From: a virus
Length of the DNA stretch: 30,333 nt
Strand: one strand, 5' to 3'
UHGV virus genome: UHGV-0122274
The number at the start of each line of letters is the position of its first letter. Position 1 is the stretch's first letter. Below are positions 542-30,311 of this stretch, piece after piece. A model generated the notes under the pieces. The model did no database searches and had not been told where the DNA came from. It saw only the letters and a list, made by a program, of their open reading frames with translations. Made by a program: the position numbers and the translations under genes.

Positions 542-904
542 ATGTTAAAGCTATTTGCAAAGTACACCTCGATTGGTGTGCTGAACACACTTATACACTG
601 GGTGGTTTTTGGTGTTTGTATCTATGCCGCGCATACCAATCAGGCTCTGGCAAACTTCGCAGGTTTTGTTGTGGCTGTGAGTTTTAGCTTCTTCGCGAAT
701 GCAAAATTCACATTCAAAGCATCAACTACAACGATGCGCTACATGTTATATGTCGGGTTCATGGGAACACTGAGTGCAACTGTTGGATGGGCTGCTGATA
801 GATGTTCACTTCCTCCAATTGTCACTCTTGTCACCTTCTCCGCCATCAGCCTGGTGTGCGGTTTCGTCTATTCAAAGTTCATTGTCTTTAGGAATTCAAA
901 ATGA
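542..904 (+). CDS. gtrA: GtrA, bactoprenol-linked glucose translocase (flippase) of the O-antigen glucosylation cassette
   Basis: 120-aa small hydrophobic protein with about 4 predicted TM segments, directly upstream of and overlapping a GT2 glucosyltransferase; classic gtrA position and size. Confidence 0.85.
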
Positions 905-1818
905 AAATTTCGCTTGTTGTTCCGGTCTTCAATGAGGAGGCCGCAATACCAATCTTCTACAAAACGGTGCGAGAATTCGACAAGTTAAAGCAGTATGAAG
1001 TTGAAATAGTTTTCATCAATGATGGCAGTAAAGACGCAACAGAATCAATTATCAACGCGCTTGCGATGTCAGATCCTCTTGTAGTTTCACTGTCATTCAC
1101 AAGGAATTTTGGTAAAGAGCCAGCTTTGTTTGCTGGACTTGAACATGCAACTGGCAATGCAGTAATACCTATAGATGTTGATCTTCAGGACCCAATCGAG
1201 GTTATCCCGCACCTGATAGAGAAATGGCAGTCAGGATCTGACATGGTTCTTGCTAAGCGATCAGAACGTTCTACTGATAGTCTATTAAAGCGGAAAACAG
1301 CGGAGTGGTTCTACAAACTACATAACAAAATCAGCAATCCAAAGATTGAGGAAAATGTTGGTGATTTTCGGCTGATGAGCCGCGATGTTGTCGAAAACAT
1401 AAAGAGAATGCCAGAACGAAACCTGTTCATGAAAGGCGTGTTGAGTTGGGTTGGTGGCAAGACAGACGTCGTTGAATATGTCCGTGCTGAACGTGTTGCG
1501 GGAGATTCAAAGTTCAATGGCTGGAAATTATGGAACCTAGCACTTGAAGGTATTACCAGCTTTTCAACTTTTCCTCTCAAAATATGGACATATATAGGTT
1601 TGTTCGTCGCCGGTACAGCGTTCACGTATGGCTCGTGGATGATTATTGATACGTTAGCATTTGGTAACCCCGTTAGAGGTTATCCGTCAATTCTGGTATC
1701 GATTCTTTTCCTTGGAGGCATCCAACTTATTGGAATCGGTATTCTTGGTGAATATGTTGGCCGTATATATATAGAAACAAAAAAACGACCAAAATATTTT
1801 TTAAAGGATAAAAAATGA
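901..1818 (+). CDS. gtrB: GtrB, bactoprenol glucosyltransferase (GT2 family)
   Basis: 305 aa; N-terminal [13 protein letters not shown]...INDGSKD GT2 signature, DxD-like IDVDLQD, C-terminal pair of TM helices; start overlaps gtrA stop. Confidence 0.9.
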
Positions 1819-3299
1819 ATTTAAAAAAAGAAATAAACGCCAATAGCATTAAGATAATGGTTATAGCATTTATAACGTCTTTACTCGTTTATTTTCAAAA
1901 CCTAACCAACTTTTCTATATCAATAGACACAGAGTACGCTTTTTTTTCATGGCCTAATGAAGGTATTTTATGGTGGATTTCTCTAGGGCGGTGGGGTTCA
2001 GCAATAATCGACTATATATTTAGGGTAAACGCCTACACGCCGGGGTTTACAACTCTCGTAATGTTAGCGCTTAATGTTATAACTGCTTTCTTATTAGCTG
2101 TAAACACGTTTAAGCTCCTTAGTACAAGGATAATGTTTGCTATTATTTTTGTATCATTTCCGCAATTTGCTTATCAAGCTGAGTTTGCTCAGCAGTCCGA
2201 TACCGTTGCATTAGGTCAACTTCTCGCATGTATATCAGGTCTGATACTTTATTCTTCAATCTTTGGAAAAGACAAAGTAAATATAAAACTTCTATTTATT
2301 GGGGTTTTAGTGCTTACCTTTTCACTAGGAATATATCAATCACTAATCTCTTTCCCTGTCGTTGTATTTTTAATGCAATTCATTGCAAAATGTAATGAAG
2401 AATGCAAAAAGAGAATCATTAAATGTTTTTCAATATTTTCGCTTGCAATAATACTTGCTACATCCATTTATTATATAATAGTTTTTTTAAGTCATGCTAT
2501 ATTCAACGTAACCACACCCACATATCTTAAAGACACCTTTCACTGGCTAAAAGAACCTGTATACGAAACGCTTCAAAGGGTGAGTGAGGTTGTGATATCA
2601 ACACTCACAGGTGATTATTATTTTGGGGCTAGCATTATTCCGTTCATGGTGGTTCCCGTTGTTTTTCTTTCCTATAGTCAGGTAATCAATCATGATAAAA
2701 ATATTATAAAATTAATATCAATATTAACATTAGCAATCAGCCCCTTCTTTGTGGTTATCGGACTCGGGGGCATACAGGGCCCCAGAGTTTTGCTTGGGTT
2801 ATCTGTAACATTCGCTTTTCTATTTGCTTTCGCTATAGAAAAATTAAAAACATGCAGCAAAGTAAAAAGCACACTGTCAGCCCTAATTTGCACAATTGTA
2901 GTTTACTATAGTGCATCAACAGTAAATATGCTCTTTTACTCTGATGCAATGGCAAGAGAGATAGATTCCAACATAACTAACAGGATATTGTCCCAACTAC
3001 AAAGTAAGTATGGTAACTTTAATCCGTCAACGGATGTCGTAAGTTTCATCGGTGCGTATCCCACATACAACCCTTGGAAAAAAAATAATTCTGACACCTT
3101 TGGTGAGTCAATGTTTAGTTTTTCAGGAGGAGATCCTCGTAGAATTACAAAATATGCAGCAATGATAAGTGGGTTTTCTTTAAATTTACACATTGCAAGT
3201 AACGACGAAAAAGAAAAATTAAAACTCATTCCGTCATGGCCTGACGCGGACTCAATAACAGTTATGAATGGAATTTATTTCATTAAGCTAGGAGATTAA
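1815..3299 (+). CDS. Serotype-specific O-antigen glucosyltransferase (GtrC / Gtr-type family), polytopic membrane protein
   Basis: 494-aa highly hydrophobic protein, third gene of the gtr operon with ATGA overlap to gtrB; markedly AT-rich coding sequence. Confidence 0.75.
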
Positions 3300-3369: not shown

Positions 3370-5550
3370 TTAGCCTGATGCTAATCTAGCAACAATACCA
3401 GCCATAACAAAAACGATTATCTGGTCATAATTAAGTGCGTATGCATCATTCACTTCATCATGGTCTATCATTTTGTATTTTCTGTAATTAAGCCCATGTT
3501 TTTCCATTACTTTTATTACATCTTGAACTATGTACCCGATATTAATAGGTGAGTCATCGCCCATTTCCTCACAATCTTTAAGCCACATGAATGTACCAGA
3601 GCATAGTGCAAGCTCTTGTGCAGCAGCGATTTCATTCTCTGTAAATTTCTTAAGCTTGGTTTTCTTGCGTTCATCAGATGTTGTTAAAACCCCACCTGCG
3701 GAATACACAAGTTTCCATAAACGAGTTGAATCACCGTTGGTATATGTGTTGCTTATGTGAGGCCCGCAAGCGCCATTAATGTCTAGGGGAAATACTGGAT
3801 TATCTGTATTAACACCAACGTTACCACCGCGAGGATTAATAACTACTTGGTAGTTATTGCCGGATGCATCACTCCCCTGAATAAAGCCGCCGTTAGAGCC
3901 AGAGTTGCTCAAACATCCAAACTGTAGCTCTCTAGCACCGTCTGTGTATTGCGTCCTGAAAGAACCTAGCTTAAACATTGTGCCATCTGACATTGGTGCA
4001 TTGGTTTTATTACTAGCATATAAAAGTGCAGATGGAGATGACCCATCATTCATAATCCCAACAAGGCCGCTTGGTGTAATCTCCATTACTTTATGCGGTT
4101 TATAGGCACCATCGCCCCCGTTATAGAAACGGATAGGATAATATTTACCATCCCCGGAAATTCCTGCCCTTATTTCGTATTCACCAACTGCTTTAGCAGA
4201 GATAGTTAAATTCTCCTCATCCACGCCTGTAGTTTTCTGCACACGCAATGTACTTATTTGTGAGTTAATATCATCCCTCATTTTGTATTGCGCGTTTGTG
4301 GCATTTATAGAGGTATCCTGCAAAGTGCACGTATTGCCTTTATTAGATATACTGACGACGTTACGAAGTGTTCCGTTAAGCCAGAATTTATACGTACCAT
4401 TTCCATATCCGAAGAAAAAGAATGGATCTCCTGATTTTCTTGTACATACCCCATTTACCACGTCGCATATACCCCCACCTGTGGTATATACGTAATGGTA
4501 TCTAGAATGAGCACCTATGGCAGCAGTAAGGTTTCCCCCTCCAATTTCTGTAACAGAAATCTGGTCTGCTGAGGTTAATGCAGTAATTACCAGTGCCCTG
4601 TCAAAAGCATAAATTGCATCACCTACTGCCCAATTAGTAATGTCGAAAAGCGAGCCACTTTCACGTATCAGTACGTTCTGTGACTGATGTACAAGTTGAC
4701 CTTGTGCCGCAGAGCCATAAATAGCAACTTCTGATGGGTTATAATTTTTGCTAGTTTGAATGCGCATCCAGTTAGCGTGCCCATCTGATGATAAGAACAT
4801 TCCATCACCAGAATCCATAAGAGCGCCTCCACCAACTTTAAAGCCACCCATATTCGCAGTTGTTCCCGCAGAAACAATTCCCGCACCGAATTTAGTTTCG
4901 TCTCTTCGGCGGTACTGAACGTTTAAAAATGCAGAAAAGGATATGGCTGGCGTTAATATTGCCTCAGAGTCAACAATTAACGTGGGTAGTTTTGCCCACA
5001 CCAGGGCGATAGGAGTATTGCATACATAATTACCAGCAGGAACATATAGTGTTGTGCAACCGGAAGGAAGCGCAGCAATCATTGCTGCCCATAAGGAACT
5101 CTCGTCAGTGCCGTCACCCATAATCCCATAATCACGGACATTAATGAAATCAGCTAGCGCAAGCTTACCATTCCTGATAGTAAGAGGCCGATCAAGCAGA
5201 TTCTGTCTTAACTGGTCAGGGTCATACTTCAGCACATTAGGGAAATAGAACTGCTGCGTGCCATATGCATCATAAACAGCCATCGAATGACCTTGCACGG
5301 TAACGAATTTGGCAATCTGTCCGTTATATACAGGATATCCGGCAACGTTAATGATGATTGGCTGTGCAACAGGAATGTGAGAACCGTCTTCGTTCTCCAC
5401 ATAAACCTGAATCTGGTTTTCAGGATTTACCGGGTCAGTGTCAATTTTACCGATATAAATTTTGCCATTGGCTACGGCTTTAAAAGAACGAGCCATAGTG
5501 AAGAGTTGCGAAGGCATACTCACTACAACATTGGCTGTAATGTCTGTCAT
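3370..5550 (-). CDS. Tailspike protein: P22 gp9-like N-terminal head-binding domain, central beta-helix-like receptor-binding/depolymerase domain, C-terminal intramolecular chaperone (S74-like) region
   Basis: N-terminus [43 protein letters not shown]... matches the P22 tailspike head-binding domain from memory; [13 protein letters not shown] motif typical of pectate-lyase-fold beta-helix starts; C-terminal [10 protein letters not shown] resembles the S-D-x-R-x-K autocleavage motif; GGAG RBS upstream. Confidence 0.85.
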
Positions 5551-22963: not shown

Positions 22964-23587
22964 TTAACGTGTGACCGCATTCAAAATGTTGTCTGCGATT
23001 GACTCTTCCTTGTGGCATTGCACCACCAGAGCGTCATACAGTGGCTTAACAGTGCGTGACCAGGTGGGTTGGGTAAGGTTTGGGATTAGCATCGTTACAG
23101 CGCGATATGCGGCACTTGCTGGCATCCTTGAATAGCCGACTCCTTTGCATCTTCCGCACTCTTTCTCGACAACTCTCCCCCACTGCTCTGTTTTTGCTAT
23201 ATCAACCGCACGGCCTGTACCGTGGCAATCTCTGCATCTTGCCCCCGGCGTCGCGGCACTACGGCAATAATCCGCATAAGCGAATGTTGCGAGCACTTGC
23301 AGTACCTTTGCCTTAGTATTTCCTTCGAGCTTTGCCACACCACGGTATTTCCCCGATACCTTGTGTGCAAATTGCATCAGATAGTTGATAGCCTTTTGTT
23401 TGTCGTTCTGGCTGAGTTCATGCTTACCGCAGAATGCAGCCATTCCGAATCCGGCTTGTGATTGCGCCATCCCCATAGCAGCCATCACATCAGTACCGGA
23501 AAGAGAGTCAGAAGCCGTAGTCCGTGGTGTGTCGCTCATCATCGGGCTTTTTGGCGAATGAAATTTAGCTACGCTTTCGAGTCTCAT
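22964..23587 (-). CDS. Q: Late-gene antiterminator Q (lambda-type)
   Basis: 207 aa, [48 protein letters not shown]...[11 protein letters not shown]...[10 protein letters not shown] (zinc-binding motif); matches lambda Q from memory. Confidence 0.9.
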
Positions 23588-26289: not shown

Positions 26290-26726
26290 GCAGCCCGATC
26301 TCCCCATCGCGCTTTCCATTCGAGAGCCAGTCGCGCTTCGTCTGACCACTTAACGCCACGCTCTGTACCGAATGCCTGTATAAGCTCTAATAGCTCCGCA
26401 AATTCGCTTACACGCATCCTGCTGGTTGACTGGCCTATTACCACAAAGCCATTCCCGGCAAGGTTAGGAACAACATCCTGCTGCTTTAATGCTGCGGTAA
26501 ACACACACTTCCAGCTTTCTGCATCCAGCCAGCGACCATGCCATTCAACCTGACGAGAGACGTCACCAAGGCAAGCCCAAAGCTTTCGATTCTGGTCTAA
26601 GCTGCGGTTGCGTTCCTGAATGGTTACTACGATTGGTTTGGTTGGGTCTGGAAGAATTTGCTGTACCGCGTGAATAGCGTTTTGCTGATGTGCTGGAGAT
26701 CGAATTTCAAAGGTTAGTTTTTTCAT
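26286..26726 (-). CDS. ninB: NinB (Orf) recombination mediator
   Basis: 146 aa, MKKLTFEIRSPAHQQNAIHAVQQILPDPTKPIVVTIQERNRSLDQNRKLWACLGDVSRQVEWHGRW... matches lambda NinB from memory. Confidence 0.85.
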   Translation of the reverse strand: MKKLTFEIRSPAHQQNAIHAVQQILPDPTKPIVVTIQERNRSLDQNRKLWACLGDVSRQVEWHGRWLDAESWKCVFTAALKQQDVVPNLAGNGFVVIGQSTSRMRVSEFAELLELIQAFGTERGVKWSDEARLALEWKARWGDRAA

Positions 26727-26919
26727 GACTTCCCTCTCTAACAGATTTCAGGTTATTCCACTCCGTTACCGCACTGCGATAATTCGCGGCCGCCACAGCA
26801 GCGTGGTTAGCGCAGTAGATTTGGCACCCGTTCTCCATGTCGAATATTGTCGGTGATTTTCCGCATTTACATTTCTTGGCACGCGGTGCGTCTGAACACA
26901 TTCCGTTAACGGTGTCCAT
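26707..26919 (-). CDS. Small Cys-rich hypothetical protein (70 aa), possible zinc ribbon
   Basis: GAGGGG RBS 7-8 nt upstream of the ATG; Cys pattern C-x8-C-x-C-x13-C-x3-C; overlaps the ninB start by 20 nt; occupies the ren position of lambda. Confidence 0.5.
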   Translation of the reverse strand: MDTVNGMCSDAPRAKKCKCGKSPTIFDMENGCQIYCANHAAVAAANYRSAVTEWNNLKSVREGSHEKTNL

Positions 26920-26952: not shown

Positions 26953-26973
26953 GGGCTACTGTGTAAATAGCCC
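26953..26973 (-). terminator. Weak hairpin (gggcta / tagccc, 9-nt loop) followed by a U-rich tract after the primase-helicase gene
   Basis: Read directly in the 85-bp gap between the helicase stop (27005) and the 70-aa ORF start (26919). Confidence 0.3.
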
Positions 26974-27004
26974 CTGTTATTAGCTCAGTGATGTAGATGG
27001 TCAT

Positions 27005-28885
27005 TTAATACTCCGTCACGTTTTCCTGTCGCCACGCCTCGTCATATTCCGATTTCGGCATATTGGCGATGTAGCTATATGGCGATCCTGATTCAAGTTG
27101 CAGGAACTGGTGCGATTGCTCGTCAAGGAACAACGGGACGCCACCTTCCCAACCTTCGCCGTTACGTTGTTTTTCAAGCATCAAAACAGATGCCGGAGAC
27201 GCCAGTACCTGTTCGTCCTTCTCTGACATCTTTTCACCACTCTGAACTCTCTGTAACGCTCTCTCGCGAGCCTTGTTACGCCAGATGATGAAAAGGTTGT
27301 CTGTCAGGTCTGTTATCGCTCCAGAGCCTTTTACGTCCATTTTCCCGGTTGGTTTTTCTTCGCTGTCTCCTTTTCGCGAGTGAGTAACGAGAATGACGTG
27401 GGAGTTTGTTTTGTTTTTGAAGTCGCAAATCGAGTCAACAAACGCCTTCTGCCCGTTATAGTCATCGTCGCCTATGCCACATTTCATCAGGCTGTCGATG
27501 ATGAATAACTGGATCCCGTATCGGCGGCGAGCGTAGTCGAATATTTCGATCAGCCTGTCGGCTTTCGCCGTTCCGGTCAGGCCAAACACCCAAAGTCTTT
27601 CGTCATAAAATTTAAATGCAGAGTCAATTTCCAGCACTGGCGGCATCTTGCAGCACGTCGCCTGACGGGTAAGTCGCTTAAGGAGAATGCCTGGCTTCAG
27701 CTCAAGTGACGCGATGCACGTCTTCACACCCTGACGCATTGCCTCAAGTGCCATATGCCCGACAACCTCCGTTTTTCCGTGACCGTTCACACCATTGACC
27801 AGCGTCAACTCGGCCTCACGGAACTGGAATTTATCTGCCAGAGATTCCCACGGTGGATTAAACAGATACTGCTGCTTGCCGTAGAAAGCGTTGATAGTGT
27901 CCTGGTAAAACTCTCGCGCGCTGTAGAGTTCTTCAGGATCGAAGTAGGATGCCGTGCCGATGTACTGCCAGATTTCATCCTCGGTAACACCGTTCATCAG
28001 GCATTCGTTGATGTCTTTGTACGGCAGAGTAACAAGACGGCAACGATGTTCACCGAGTCGGCTTGCGATTTCCCTTGCGGCTTCACGACCAACATCATCA
28101 ACGTCCATCGAGATGAATATTTCCTCAAACCTGTCGAGATTGTGATACTCAAACTCAATCCACTGCTGCTTAGCGCCTTTCCCGCCACCAAACGGCACGG
28201 ATAACGCCGAGATGCCGTATTGCGCATAGCTCATACAATCAATTTCGCCTTCGCAAAGTACAACCGCCCTCACGCCAGCGTCCAGAGCCTGCCATCCGAA
28301 CAGACAAGGTTCGCAATCACCTTCTGCCATAATGACTTTCTTCCCGTCCGGGCGCTCAGTGCTGATTCGCTTGACCTGCAACAACTCACCATCGCGTTTG
28401 TACGGAAGCACCAGAGCATCCAGTTCTCGCTCTCCATTCCACACCTTGCCGCTGACAACCTCGTAGCGCTTTACGACTTCTGGCGATATGCCACGCGATT
28501 GCAGGTACTCAAGATGGGATTCTGTTCTGGTAACGTAGCGGGCGATTTTCTTGCGATCAGGTCTGGAGAATTTCTTCTCACGTTTGGCATCGAAATGGTG
28601 ATCGTCATCCTTGATACCGAGAAATGCTTTCGCTTCCTGCATAGCCTGATGCAGGTTAATTCCACGACATGCCATCCACAAATCAAGCATGTCACCGCCG
28701 TCTCCCTCAGCGAAATCAGCCCATTTTTTCTTGCCGCTAAGGTTGACCTTAAGGCTGTTTCCCTTGTCACCGTTGACGTTACCGGCAACCCACTCATGCC
28801 CATCTTTCTTGCCGTTTGGCAACAGGTGCGGAGCCACCCTGTCAACCTGCGCCCAAAGCAGGTCGCTAAGTTCACTTGGAGTCAT
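27005..28885 (-). CDS. Replicative primase-helicase (Toprim-type primase domain fused to a DnaB/RecA-like SF4 helicase domain)
   Basis: 626 aa; central acidic Toprim-like motifs (VVLCEGEIDCMSYAQYG, ISMDVDDVGREAA); Walker A GVNGHGKT, Walker B LFIIDSLMK, and ILVTHSRKG motif in the C-terminal half. Confidence 0.8.
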   Translation of the reverse strand: MTPSELSDLLWAQVDRVAPHLLPNGKKDGHEWVAGNVNGDKGNSLKVNLSGKKKWADFAEGDGGDMLDLWMACRGINLHQAMQEAKAFLGIKDDDHHFDAKREKKFSRPDRKKIARYVTRTESHLEYLQSRGISPEVVKRYEVVSGKVWNGERELDALVLPYKRDGELLQVKRISTERPDGKKVIMAEGDCEPCLFGWQALDAGVRAVVLCEGEIDCMSYAQYGISALSVPFGGGKGAKQQWIEFEYHNLDRFEEIFISMDVDDVGREAAREIASRLGEHRCRLVTLPYKDINECLMNGVTEDEIWQYIGTASYFDPEELYSAREFYQDTINAFYGKQQYLFNPPWESLADKFQFREAELTLVNGVNGHGKTEVVGHMALEAMRQGVKTCIASLELKPGILLKRLTRQATCCKMPPVLEIDSAFKFYDERLWVFGLTGTAKADRLIEIFDYARRRYGIQLFIIDSLMKCGIGDDDYNGQKAFVDSICDFKNKTNSHVILVTHSRKGDSEEKPTGKMDVKGSGAITDLTDNLFIIWRNKARERALQRVQSGEKMSEKDEQVLASPASVLMLEKQRNGEGWEGGVPLFLDEQSHQFLQLESGSPYSYIANMPKSEYDEAWRQENVTEY

Positions 28886-28995
28886 TACGCTGACCTCAGA
28901 TCGAGACGGTTAAACCAGAACTCAACGAATGCAGAACTAAGCCAGCCATGGTTATAGCCAGCGATAAGTAACGATTTGATTCTGGATTTCATGGT

Positions 28996-29856
28996 TCACC
29001 TGTCGAAAAACACGTAGCCAGTTTTCGATACGGTGATTGCGGATGATGGTTTGGATTGTGGTTGAATAGTTTCTGGCTTCTCGTCGTTCCAGCGTTGACC
29101 GTTCAGGTAGCTTGATGGTAACAACCTGTCGAATCCGAACTGCTTACCATTCCTGCATGCGATGTCTTCTGCCAGCATCGTGGCAAACTCGCTTGCCGTA
29201 CCCCTGGTAGTTTTACGCCATTCCCTGAACTGTGTTCTGAATGCCGAAGCTGCGTTTTTCTTCCCGGCTTTCCGCATGCCTGCACACCAGAATATTTCCT
29301 CGAATGCCTTGTCGGTTTCTTCGTGACGGTCAGATGATTTTTCACACTCAGTCCGAACACTTTCGGACATAGTGTTTTTATTATTTCTTTTTTCTTTTGT
29401 AATAGTTTCTTTTGTGTGTCCCTGTTTTGGTGACAGCGCTGTCACCGTTTTGGTGACACTTTTTGTCACCAATGCAGTGACATTATCACCAGAGTAGTGA
29501 CACCCTTCGATTTGCCATTCCTCGATGTTCTTGTTAGGCCCGATTTGCTGGCCTTCGCGAAGGATAACCTTCATCGCGATAAGCTCATTCTTGGCCTTGT
29601 TTACCTTCTGTCTTGGCAGCCTGGTAATTTGAGCTAACTGACTATCAGAGATGCGATCCATCTTTTTACCGTAGCCGTATGTTTTACGGCATATGGCGTG
29701 GGCAACCTTGCTCTGATTTTTCGTTAAATCTGCGCCGATAAGCTCTTCATACAGGGCATTTGCAAGACGGGTATAACCATCTTCAACTTCTGCCACACGA
29801 CGCTCCACAGGCCGTTGTGAAGGCCTTAAATGTGTTACGGTTGCAAGATTACTCAT
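28996..29856 (-). CDS. Replication initiator, lambda O-like (N-terminal iteron-binding domain)
   Basis: 286 aa; N-terminus ...[61 protein letters not shown]... resembles the lambda O N-terminal domain; origin iterons lie inside the gene. Confidence 0.8.
29371..29505 (-). repeat. Replication origin inside the O-like gene: four iterons (GGTGACA...TGTCACC inverted-repeat units, 20-24 bp period) followed by an AT-rich region
   Basis: Units at about 29425-29446 (perfect 18-bp palindrome ggtgacagcgctgtcacc), 29447-29470, 29471-29490 and 29491-29505; AT-rich tract 29371-29414; arrangement (iterons then AT-rich in the direction of O transcription) parallels lambda ori. Confidence 0.55.
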
Positions 29857-29995
29857 GACCTTTCTCCTTCTGCATCAGCTTCACTTTTTCCAACTCAGCC
29901 CGGAATCGACCAGGCTGCTTGAAGCTGGACAGGAAGCGATCACGTAGTATGTGTTTGTGAATTTTGTCCTGGTAAGGACTGAGTTGTTTTGTCAT
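29849..29995 (-). CDS. Small hypothetical protein (48 aa) between cII and the O-like gene
   Basis: Hand translation [48 protein letters not shown]; GGAG RBS 5 nt upstream of the ATG; its 3' end overlaps the O start. Confidence 0.4.
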
Positions 29996-30029: not shown

Positions 30030-30311
30030 TCAGGCCTCGAAGAATTCGCCGTTCTTCGGGGCTTTTTCTTTTGTCAGGTAATCGGCAAGCCGCTTAGTCA
30101 ATTCAGCCATTTCATCGTCTTCGATTCCGTATTCCAGAACAGCAAGCATCATGCTTACCTGCGAGAAGAAACCATTCTTCCATCGGCTTACCTGATATTC
30201 AGGAACCCCCATCGCTCGAGCGAATGTCTTCTGCCCCATCAGTGCCAGTTTGTTCAGCAAGGCTGACTCGATGCGAGCCGCTTTCTTGCTTTTAGTTGCA
30301 ATAGTACCCAT
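30030..30311 (-). CDS. cII: CII-like transcriptional activator of lysogeny
   Basis: 93 aa; ...[64 protein letters not shown]... parallels lambda CII (HTH region and C-terminal degradation tail) from memory. Confidence 0.8.

Follow-up and report, generated by a model that had tools for sequence, protein, structure and literature searches.

The UHGV-0122274 window (the whole stretch of DNA that was analysed, 30,333 nucleotides) is a P22-like E. coli prophage with an ES18-type replication cassette. Its three genes encode an origin-binding protein like lambda O, a very small conserved protein of 35 residues, and a primase-helicase like T7 gp4. As judged from sequence comparisons, the C-terminal domain of the O-like protein in this type of cassette probably recruits the phage primase-helicase directly, in place of host DnaB delivered by P. 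The pairing of an O-type initiator with a primase-helicase, which had been noticed in the original prediction, is real and was confirmed, but it is ordinary. The cassette is not new, as ES18 was annotated with the same gene set already in 2005.

Gene content of the replication region

Both open reading frames (ORFs) on which the prediction was based, 28996-29856(-) and 27005-28885(-), lie where it had placed them. The following features were assigned to the region:

28996..29856, minus strand: O-like replication initiator, 286 aa (ORF; Pfam Phage_rep_O; TIGR01610; BLASTP with lambda O)
28885..28992, minus strand: conserved 35-codon gene MKSRIKSLLIAGYNHGWLSSAFVEFWFNRLDLRSA (translation; PHROG 21848; equals ES18 gp60 and epsilon34 gp51)
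27005..28885, minus strand: predicted bifunctional primase-helicase of the T7 gp4/Twinkle type, 626 aa (Pfam; PHROG; T7 gp4 alignment; Foldseek)
29849..29995, minus strand: 48-aa DUF2740 ORF that overlaps the O start and is like ES18 gp58 and HK97 gp53 (Pfam DUF2740, 9e-29; ES18 annotation)
26973..27005: 33-bp conserved junction, the downstream edge of the cassette (blastn matches)
30030-30311 and 22964-23587: cII and Q, respectively, the limits of the scan for loader genes

The predicted absence of a P or DnaC-like gene held up. The ORFs scanned from cII to Q, which comprised all but the smallest nin-region ORFs, included none for a lambda-P or DnaC/IstB-like protein, and Phage_lambda_P, IstB_IS21, and PHROG 109 had 0 matches in this set. 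The same searches do detect such genes at other loci. No Pfam model matched the 70-aa ORF located downstream.

A predicted origin within the initiator gene

The 286-aa protein has the N-terminal domain of a lambda O-type initiator, in agreement with the prediction. Phage_rep_O (PF04492) matched residues 20 to 114 (E value, 1e-37), NCBIfam phage_O_Nterm (TIGR01610) matched the protein at 1.6e-30, and BLASTP revealed 49% identity to lambda O that was confined to residues ~1 to 157. This winged-helix domain (residues ~1 to 157) is followed by a linker, which is encoded by the origin, and then by the C-terminal domain. The origin features are as follows:

29417-29435, 29440-29458, 29464-29482, and 29484-29502: putative origin iterons, four ~19-bp dyad repeats (repeat and inverted-repeat search)
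29375..29415: A/T-rich tract aaagaaactattacaaaagaaaaaagaaataataaaaac adjoining the iterons on the O C-terminal side (sequence reading; blastn joints)

The iterons are of the type TGTCACC-N5-GGTGACA, have internal dyad symmetry, and fall inside O codons ~119 to 147. Together with the A/T-rich tract they cover codons ~119 to 160, in the interdomain linker of the initiator's own gene. GGTGACA is present 12 times in the window (3.4 expected), with 4 of the 12 copies in the iteron region (29417-29502). The A/T-rich tract, which is presumed to be the unwinding region, is also a mosaic joint with other phages. The position of the origin within the O gene matches that of the lambda iterons, and these features show that the gene contains a predicted origin of the lambda style, in which four dyad iterons are followed by an A/T-rich tract.

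A primase-helicase without zinc ligands

Toprim-like primase motifs and Walker A/B helicase motifs had been reported for the 626-aa protein, and Pfam, PHROG 239 ("DNA primase/helicase," 3e-171), and an alignment with T7 gp4 all bore this out. In Pfam, Toprim_2 matched residues 209 to 296 (3e-12) and AAA_25 and DnaB_C matched the protein as well, DnaB_C over residues 355 to 594 with 23.9 bits, which is below the Pfam cutoff of 27 bits. The best solved relatives by sequence were T7 gp4 (3e-23) and Twinkle, and the top fold matches in Foldseek were Twinkle (3e-22) and T7 gp4 (7e-20). Three domains were delineated:

28616..28885, minus strand: zinc-ribbon-like N-terminal domain, residues 1 to 90 (TIGR01391; T7 gp4 alignment; AF2)
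27998..28261, minus strand: Toprim catalytic core, residues 209 to 296 (Pfam Toprim_2; T7 gp4 alignment)
27104..27823, minus strand: SF4 (DnaB/gp4-type) helicase domain, residues 355 to 594 (Pfam AAA_25 and DnaB_C; T7 gp4 alignment)

All five acidic ligands of the Toprim core (E212, D216, D261, D263, and D291) are present and align with the EGEID, DxD, and KD motifs of T7 gp4. The helicase motifs are Walker A GHGKT (368 to 372), Walker B D464, H502, KGSGA (519 to 523), and QRNG R574. Relatives at 58 to 94% identity show no variation in the Toprim ligands or in any of the SF4 motifs.

The dnaG model TIGR01391 matched residues 26 to 143, consistent with a domain like the zinc-binding domain (ZBD) of DnaG, and the AF2 model of residues 1 to 90 (pLDDT ~75 to 89) has beta strands followed by helices. 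Alignment with T7 gp4 revealed that the Cys4 zinc ligands are absent from residues 1 to 90, C17 and C20 of T7 being replaced by A34 and V37. Residues 50 to 65 contain no pair of Cys or His, and the sole Cys of residues 1 to 90 is C73. The Cys-less domain is strictly conserved across the primase-helicase family. The zinc domain of T7 gp4 is needed for template-directed priming. We infer primase activity for the 626-aa protein but do not regard it as assured, because the Cys4 ligands that T7 gp4 needs for such priming are absent.

The missing ligands, together with the presence of Twinkle among the closest structural relatives, could indicate that the 626-aa protein is a helicase only. Host DnaG would then prime, as with P22 gene 12, because a degenerate zinc ribbon could not recognise template sites, and the Toprim domain would have a structural or some other role, as in metazoan Twinkle. 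We consider this unlikely. The five Toprim ligands are invariant across relatives, and the strong conservation of the Cys-less N-terminal domain argues for retained function. Active Toprim primases without zinc fingers, such as RP4 TraC and P4 alpha, also count against a helicase-only protein.

A conserved 35-codon gene between the initiator and the primase-helicase

The supposed gap between the O and primase-helicase genes is filled by the 35-codon ORF (28885-28992, minus strand), which the original prediction had missed. The interpretation of the 110-bp spacer between the two genes as noncoding was rejected because this conserved gene is located there. It ends in a stop codon that overlaps the start codon of the primase-helicase gene (TAATG). 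The 35-aa protein is matched by PHROG 21848 (2e-28), its exact-sequence cluster includes epsilon34_gp51, and the ES18 annotation places gp60 at the equivalent position. The 21 distinct nucleotide versions of the ORF all have 35 codons, with a median dN/dS of 0.19, and the gene is under purifying selection. The earlier description of the module as self-contained and free of a loader was thus correct in that there is no P or DnaC-like gene, but it overlooked a conserved gene inside the cassette. No Pfam model matched the 35-aa protein, and profile searches, including PHROG, found no homology to any known loader.

The 35-aa protein might itself be what really links O to the primase-helicase, as an adaptor or a loader, or it might regulate the latter, in which case the module would not be loader-free. 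The invariant length and the low dN/dS would fit such a role, and the gene is always found between the O and helicase genes, is translationally coupled to the helicase gene, and is inherited within the cassette. However, in Vibrio phage ValSw3-3 the O-like gene overlaps a 58%-identical primase-helicase gene and there is no such ORF, no loader homology was found, and the ORF could mainly serve translational coupling. An adaptor function is therefore doubtful, and direct recruitment by the O C-terminal domain is the preferred reading.

The C-terminal domain of the initiator

28996..29385, minus strand: O C-terminal domain, residues 158 to 286 (no Pfam match; coinherited with the primase-helicase)

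No Pfam model matched this domain. Its conserved core (residues ~181 to 258) has the pattern AFE.IFW.AG.RK..K..A..AF...F..MLA.DI..R...QFGFD.L.P.SYLNG.RW.DE and beyond it lies a tail, GYVFFDR, that is specific to the clade. The AF2 model of O, built from a 22-sequence alignment, was poor (mean pLDDT, 50), the three-helix core at residues 179 to 234 alone reaching ~70 to 76. BLASTP found no similarity to lambda O past residue 157 of the 286-aa protein. A profile of 118 C-terminal sequences found nothing in the lambda O C terminus (hhalign probability, 0.2%); the template was a single sequence, so that very remote homology is possible. A search of representative sequences, which made the full family visible, yielded at least 366 clusters at 50% identity, and a plain homologue search gave mostly fragments of close relatives. 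These searches show that the domain belongs to a widespread, unnamed family, apparently unrelated in sequence to the lambda O C terminus.

A C terminus different from that of lambda had been described as consistent with a different partner. The difference itself was upheld by BLASTP and hhalign, but it is not diagnostic alone, because the same C-terminal family adjoins P-like, DnaC-like, and DnaB-like genes elsewhere. More informative was a census of 79 viral loci with the C-terminal family. A primase-helicase partner was found at 52 of the 79, all of them with C-terminal domains at least 51% identical to that of the window, and every domain at or above this identity had such a partner. The count was 0 of ~23 evaluable loci for domains at most 50% identical, and the more distant domains had DnaC-like, DnaB-like, or P-like partners. 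The census scan used a distant first sequence as the confirmation reference, as a close reference returned close relatives only. ValSw3-3 has a primase-helicase partner despite a C-terminal domain only 38% identical to that of the window.

In IMG/VR, loci with this helicase had the O C-terminal domain immediately upstream in 79 of 79 evaluable cases, ~22 of which had a different O N terminus before the shared C-terminal domain. The C-terminal domain and primase-helicase travel together as a cassette of ~2.4 kb, which is found behind N-terminal domains of at least three kinds. For example, in Stx2a_F403 the C-terminal domain (~95% identical to the window) and the primase-helicase (96 to 99%) stand behind an unrelated HTH_36 N terminus. 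By blastn, DNA homology begins at 29429 for ES18 and at 29380 for Stx2a_F403 and ends at 27001, and the 33-bp junction (26973-27005) is common to ES18, Stx2a_F403, and the lambda ren/ninB spacer. These alignments show that the O C-terminal domain is inherited with the 35-aa gene and the primase-helicase as one ~2.4-kb unit with its left edge in the A/T-rich linker of the origin.

The comparative data support the view that the O C-terminal domain and the primase-helicase are a matched pair, and the domain is proposed to be a docking domain for the primase-helicase. Matching of the C terminus to its partner is established for lambda O-P and P22 18-12 hybrids. The joints at the O linker and the clean split between partners are as expected if the C terminus and the helicase must stay matched. 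The C-terminal family also occurs beside P-like, DnaC-like, and DnaB-like genes; it is therefore a general module, and coinheritance could partly reflect simple linkage. It is quite improbable, however, that the domain has only a generic function (oligomerization, or binding of DNA or a host factor) and no contact with the helicase: its fusion to at least five N-terminal types beside four kinds of partner, or none, would suit such a role, but partner type tracks subfamily, as the census counts indicate, and the recombination joints coincide exactly with the O linker, not with the boundaries between genes.

Comparison with known replication systems

ES18 gp59-gp60-gp61 (GenBank AY736146; Casjens et al. 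2005) was annotated with the same three genes and with an origin, and the ES18-type arrangement has been described (PMC10307801 and PMC2629481). In ES18 and the window the C-terminal domain, 35-aa gene, and primase-helicase are contiguous and in the same order, with the origin inside the O gene, and nucleotide identity is 87% over 2.43 kb (29429 to 27001). The C-terminal domains of the ES18 group are 96 to 99% identical to that of the window (96% for ES18 gp59). The same cassette is present in epsilon34 (gp50-52), g341c, SEN22, Sf101, mEp043, and the P22-like STMP5/17; Sf101 and mEp043 are 98% identical to the window throughout. The O N-terminal domain of ES18 and epsilon34 is ~94% lambda-like, with lambda-type iterons (PMC2629481). 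Unlike these phages, the window has an O N terminus only 49% identical to lambda O, and its iterons differ.

The 'Eru5' replication region of the Stx phages Stx2a_F403, Min27, and phi24B (Fagerlund et al. 2022, PMC8951638) resembles the window in the O C-terminal domain (~95%) and primase-helicase (96 to 99%) but has an HTH_36 rather than a Phage_rep_O N-terminal domain. In the Stx phages the Walker A loop of the helicase is interrupted by a 342-aa Hint/LAGLIDADG intein, which the window gene lacks.

Lambda O-P shares the O N-terminal family, the four iterons and A/T tract inside the O gene, and the location downstream of cII. The window differs in that it has no P, an O C terminus with no relationship detected by BLAST or hhalign, and a phage helicase-primase as the apparent partner rather than a loader of host DnaB. 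In P22, an O-like initiator (gene 18) is likewise followed by a phage SF4 helicase (gene 12) with no loader (PMC8022706). P22 gp12, a DnaB-type helicase, has no primase domain and works with host DnaG, according to Wickner 1984 as cited in PMC8022706; the window helicase, by comparison, carries a fused Toprim primase domain.

T7 gp4 and mitochondrial Twinkle have the same domain order (zinc-ribbon-like domain, Toprim polymerase domain, linker, and SF4 helicase) with the catalytic residues kept, and an acidic tail that ends in a terminal aromatic residue, but identity is only 24% and the zinc ligands are lost in the window protein. T7 initiates at its origin by transcription and has its own polymerase; the window has a separate initiator protein and would presumably use host Pol III. 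P4 alpha and N15 RepA are temperate-phage replicons that supply their own origin recognition, helicase, and primase and need only the host polymerase. In each, one polypeptide combines an SF3 helicase with a primase domain of a different kind, and the analogy to the window is functional only.

Proposed replication mechanism

In the proposed mechanism, O would oligomerize on the iterons and destabilize the A/T-rich tract. The C-terminal domain of O would recruit the phage primase-helicase directly, perhaps together with the 35-aa protein, and this would substitute for the delivery of host DnaB by lambda P. The SF4 ring would unwind the DNA, its Toprim domain would lay primers, and synthesis would be carried out by the host Pol III holoenzyme, SSB, and gyrase. 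Host DnaB, DnaC, and DnaG would then be dispensable for replication, and independence of host DnaB and DnaG, as originally suggested, is plausible. No experimental work on the cassette (dnaB/dnaG dependence or biochemistry) was found in the literature searched. What stands of the original interpretation, which was partly supported, is a lambda-O-type initiator with a T7-gp4-like primase-helicase replacing P and a non-lambda O C-terminal domain.

A broader and rather speculative model, which we would not expect to hold, is that the O C-terminal family is a universal swappable "replisome-organiser" adaptor whose subfamilies coevolve with the helicase or loader recruited, and that, within the primase-helicase subfamily, the strictly conserved 35-aa protein is a very small loading factor or adaptor, hitherto unrecognised, which serves a gp4-type ring helicase at an origin of the lambda type.

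Implications

The window is one more copy of the cassette. Sf101 and mEp043 already carry it at 98% identity, and a search of 5,426 complete E. coli genomes found it in 166 (at least 80% query coverage); the specific finding therefore changes nothing. The literature searched contained no study of loader-free loading of a gp4-type ring by an O-type initiator, of Cys-less primase function, or of the role of the 35-aa protein. mEp043 grows on E. coli K-12, and the questions of loading, priming, and the 35-aa protein are therefore directly testable. The cassette class matters somewhat more than this copy, as replication, and with it the dosage of the toxin gene, is driven by this class in the 'Eru5' Stx2a phages of outbreak strains.

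Replication genes of the window

The window is a P22-like prophage with P22-like morphogenesis genes, and it contains the early-right operon from cII through Q, including a nin region with NinG, NinX, a Dam-like methylase, and NinB. On the minus strand the order is cII, a DUF2740 ORF, O, a 35-aa ORF, the primase-helicase, a 70-aa ORF, and NinB.

Features of the window (coordinates, strand, identity)
542-3299, plus: gtrA/gtrB/gtrII-like genes, O-antigen glucosylation operon type
3370-5550, minus: tailspike, P22 head-binding domain and C-terminal Peptidase_S74 chaperone domain
22964-23587: Q
26707-26919, minus: 70-aa Cys-rich ORF (C..C...C..C), PHROG 6308, directly downstream of the primase-helicase
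27005-28885, minus: primase-helicase, 626 aa, Toprim plus SF4 helicase
27005-27049: its acidic C-terminal tail (residues ~612-626), ending in aromatic Y626
28885-28992, minus: 35-codon ORF filling the 110-bp "spacer" between O and the primase-helicase
28996-29856, minus: O, 286 aa, Phage_rep_O N-terminus
29375-29415: A/T-rich tract, directly on the C-terminal side of the O-gene repeats
29417-35, 29440-58, 29464-82, 29484-502: O-gene repeats (putative iterons), spacing 20-24 bp
29849-29995, minus: DUF2740 ORF, 48 aa, overlapping the O start codon, ES18 gp58/HK97 gp53-like
30030-30311, minus: cII

The Gtr operon adjoining a P22-type tailspike marks a serotype-converting P22-like prophage. PHROGs calls the family of the DUF2740 ORF "tail protein," an implausible label given the position of the gene between cII and O. 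The 70-aa ORF had no Pfam match, and its position in ES18 is occupied by gp62, of unrelated length. The 33 bp at 26973-27005, which mark the downstream end of the replication cassette, show 91-97% conservation in ES18, in Stx2a_F403, and in the spacer between lambda ren and ninB; they look like a module boundary at which recombination links the replication module to the nin module.

The original prediction of a lambda O-type initiator followed by a self-contained primase-helicase was confirmed as an observation, with both ORFs on the minus strand at exactly the coordinates given, and as a reading of the module it is essentially right, but a third gene, the lack of zinc ligands, and the promiscuous O C-terminal domain family qualify it. 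The predicted absence of P or a DnaC-like loader also held: no lambda P or DnaC/IstB-type loader was matched among the scanned cII-to-Q ORFs (the smallest nin-region ORFs left out), and identical searches detected P- and DnaC-type proteins at other loci.

O and the putative origin

O residues 20-114 match Pfam Phage_rep_O (E, 1e-37), and the protein also matches NCBIfam phage_O_Nterm (1.6e-30). As predicted, its C-terminal domain differs from that of lambda O: BLASTP identity is 49% over residues 1-157, the alignment stops at the common motif TITKEKR, and nothing aligns thereafter. Within O codons ~119-147 lie four repeats of ~19 bp, each with a dyad inside it (TGTCACC-N5-GGTGACA); they hold 4 of the 12 copies of the heptamer GGTGACA in the window (3.4 expected). 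Judged from its sequence, the gene holds a lambda-style origin layout, in the same place in the gene as in lambda, whereas the iteron sequences differ.

The primase-helicase

The 626-aa protein matches PHROG 239 "DNA primase/helicase" (3e-171), with Toprim_2 at residues 209-296, AAA_25, and DnaB_C at residues 355-594 (23.9 bits, below the Pfam cut-off of 27 bits). The best solved relatives by sequence are T7 gp4 (3e-23) and Twinkle (6e-14), and a Foldseek search with a moderate-quality AF2 model (mean pLDDT, 63) placed Twinkle, T7 gp4, and Aquifex DnaG on top. Alignment with T7 gp4 showed all of the Toprim acidic residues (E212, D216, D261, D263, and D291) and all of the SF4 motifs (GHGKT 368-372, D464, H502, KGSGA 519-523, and QRNG with R574), which are invariant in relatives at 58-94% identity from E. 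coli, Vibrio, Proteus, and Xenorhabdus phages.

Its first 90 residues look like the DnaG/gp4 zinc ribbon, with a dnaG model matching residues 26-143 and the motif GNSL in common with T7 gp4, but the Cys ligands are missing (A34 and V37 stand where T7 has C17 and C20). This Cys-less domain is strongly conserved, with invariant W55, D57, F58, G61, G64, D65, and L67-W70. The main uncertainty concerns the activity of the Cys-less primase: the conserved catalytic residues argue for it, and the T7 requirement for the zinc-binding domain calls for caution. Y626, invariant in close relatives, lines up with the C-terminal Phe of T7 gp4, whose C-terminal tail binds polymerase. Since the phage lacks its own polymerase, the partner of the tail may be O or a component of the host replisome.

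A conserved 35-aa protein

The ORF between O and the primase-helicase encodes MKSRIKSLLIAGYNHGWLSSAFVEFWFNRLDLRSA and ends on a stop codon that shares bases with the helicase ATG (TAATG). The product matches PHROG 21848 (2e-28) and nothing in Pfam; the database entry for epsilon34 gp51 is identical to it, and gp60 is annotated at the matching position in ES18. Because the ORF is exactly 35 codons long in all 21 loci with distinct nucleotide sequences, with a pairwise median dN/dS of 0.19, it encodes a real protein under purifying selection.

Exchange of the cassette among phages

The "O" of Stx2a_F403 has an HTH_36 N-terminus unrelated to that of the window, followed by ~125 C-terminal residues that share ~95% identity with those of the window; the primase-helicase that comes next is 96-99% identical. 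Among 80 IMG/VR loci with helicases at least 98.7% identical, the O C-terminal domain was directly upstream of the helicase in all 79 with enough upstream DNA, in ~22 of them behind a non-window N-terminus. DNA homology extends to 27001 from 29429 (the end of the iterons) with ES18 and from 29380 (in the A/T tract) with Stx2a_F403. These limits show that the O C-terminal domain is exchanged together with the 35-aa gene and the primase-helicase as one unit, whose left joint lies in the origin linker.

In Stx2 phages the primase-helicase, otherwise 96-99% identical, is 968 aa long, with a 342-aa intein (L002, the Stx2a_F403 locus, 3770-4798, minus strand) exactly within the Walker A loop, GHGK/T, between K371 and T372 (window ~27772-27774). 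The Stx2-phage intein starts with Ala, ends HN/T, and has Hint and LAGLIDADG homing-endonuclease matches; the window is the intein-free allele. In some relatives a free-standing HNH homing-endonuclease gene (PHROG 59, 1e-50) separates the O-like gene from the primase-helicase gene (L197 4939-5463, L218 4929-5423, and L178 4930-5451), and loci L056, L064, and L069 have ~490 bp of extra spacer. The intein and HNH insertions make the cassette a hotspot for selfish endonucleases.

The O C-terminal domain family and its partners

No Pfam model covers the family defined by the O C-terminal domain (residues 158-286), which is large, with 366 clusters at 50% identity (E ≤ 1e-3). Members are almost always the C-terminal part of 250-340-aa proteins, and the N-termini among 118 of them included HTH_36 (20), Phage_rep_O (12), DUF1376 (12), DnaD_N (8), and Lin1244_N (4).

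When the downstream gene was classified at 79 viral loci with the family, the partner was a full-length primase-helicase at 52 (counting one locus where two ORFs make up the gene and one where it runs off the contig), DnaC/IstB-like at 6, an unknown 218-aa protein at 3, a DnaB-type helicase at 2, and Phage_lambda_P at 1; at the others no partner was recognizable or the contig ended too soon. Clustering of the C-terminal domains by identity gave a clean separation: at these loci all primase-helicase partners accompanied C-terminal domains at least 51% identical to the window, and none of ~23 evaluable loci at ≤50% had one. Most phages of the annotated collection agree with this. Fraca and LMessi (51-55%) have a primase-helicase, PVA1 and D59 (41-44%) have weak P-like partners, and the partner in Skulduggery (37%) is a DnaC-like loader. 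One phage departs from the pattern: Vibrio phage ValSw3-3 (38%) has a DUF1376 N-terminus and a primase-helicase without the 35-aa gene. These sequence counts, from loci linked by kinship, indicate co-inheritance and a correspondence between subfamily and partner, not physical contact.

The P-like genes of the Vibrio phages PVA1 (L086 3754-4395) and D59 (L087 3844-4365) match PHROG 109 (E, ~3e-4) and are unannotated or "hypothetical"; the PVA1 record leaves the stretch blank.

Proposed mechanism and significance

In the proposed mechanism, the O N-terminal domain would bind the iterons and open the adjoining A/T tract, the C-terminal domain, possibly aided by the 35-aa protein, would recruit the phage ring helicase, the fused Toprim domain would prime, and host Pol III would elongate. 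Host DnaB, DnaC, and DnaG would be dispensable in consequence. Such a mechanism would take the P22 18/12 logic one function further, and it resembles the P4 alpha strategy.

The arrangement is already known. The 2005 ES18 GenBank record describes gp59 as "similar to phage lambda gpO" with a rep_origin, gp60 as "function unknown," and gp61 as "putative primase/helicase; similar to phage T7 gene 4." Epsilon34 genes 49-53 match the ES18 replication region, with gp50 lambda-like in its N-terminal 162 residues only (PMC2629481), and the Stx-phage version of the cassette is the "Eru5" type (PMC8951638). Sf101 and mEp043 are 98% identical to the window region, and of 5,426 complete E. coli genomes, 166 had a match covering at least 80% of the query. 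The literature searched yielded no experimental study of the cassette. Only two leads are mildly novel: the unnamed O C-terminal adaptor family with its partner-specific subfamilies and the conserved 35-aa protein.
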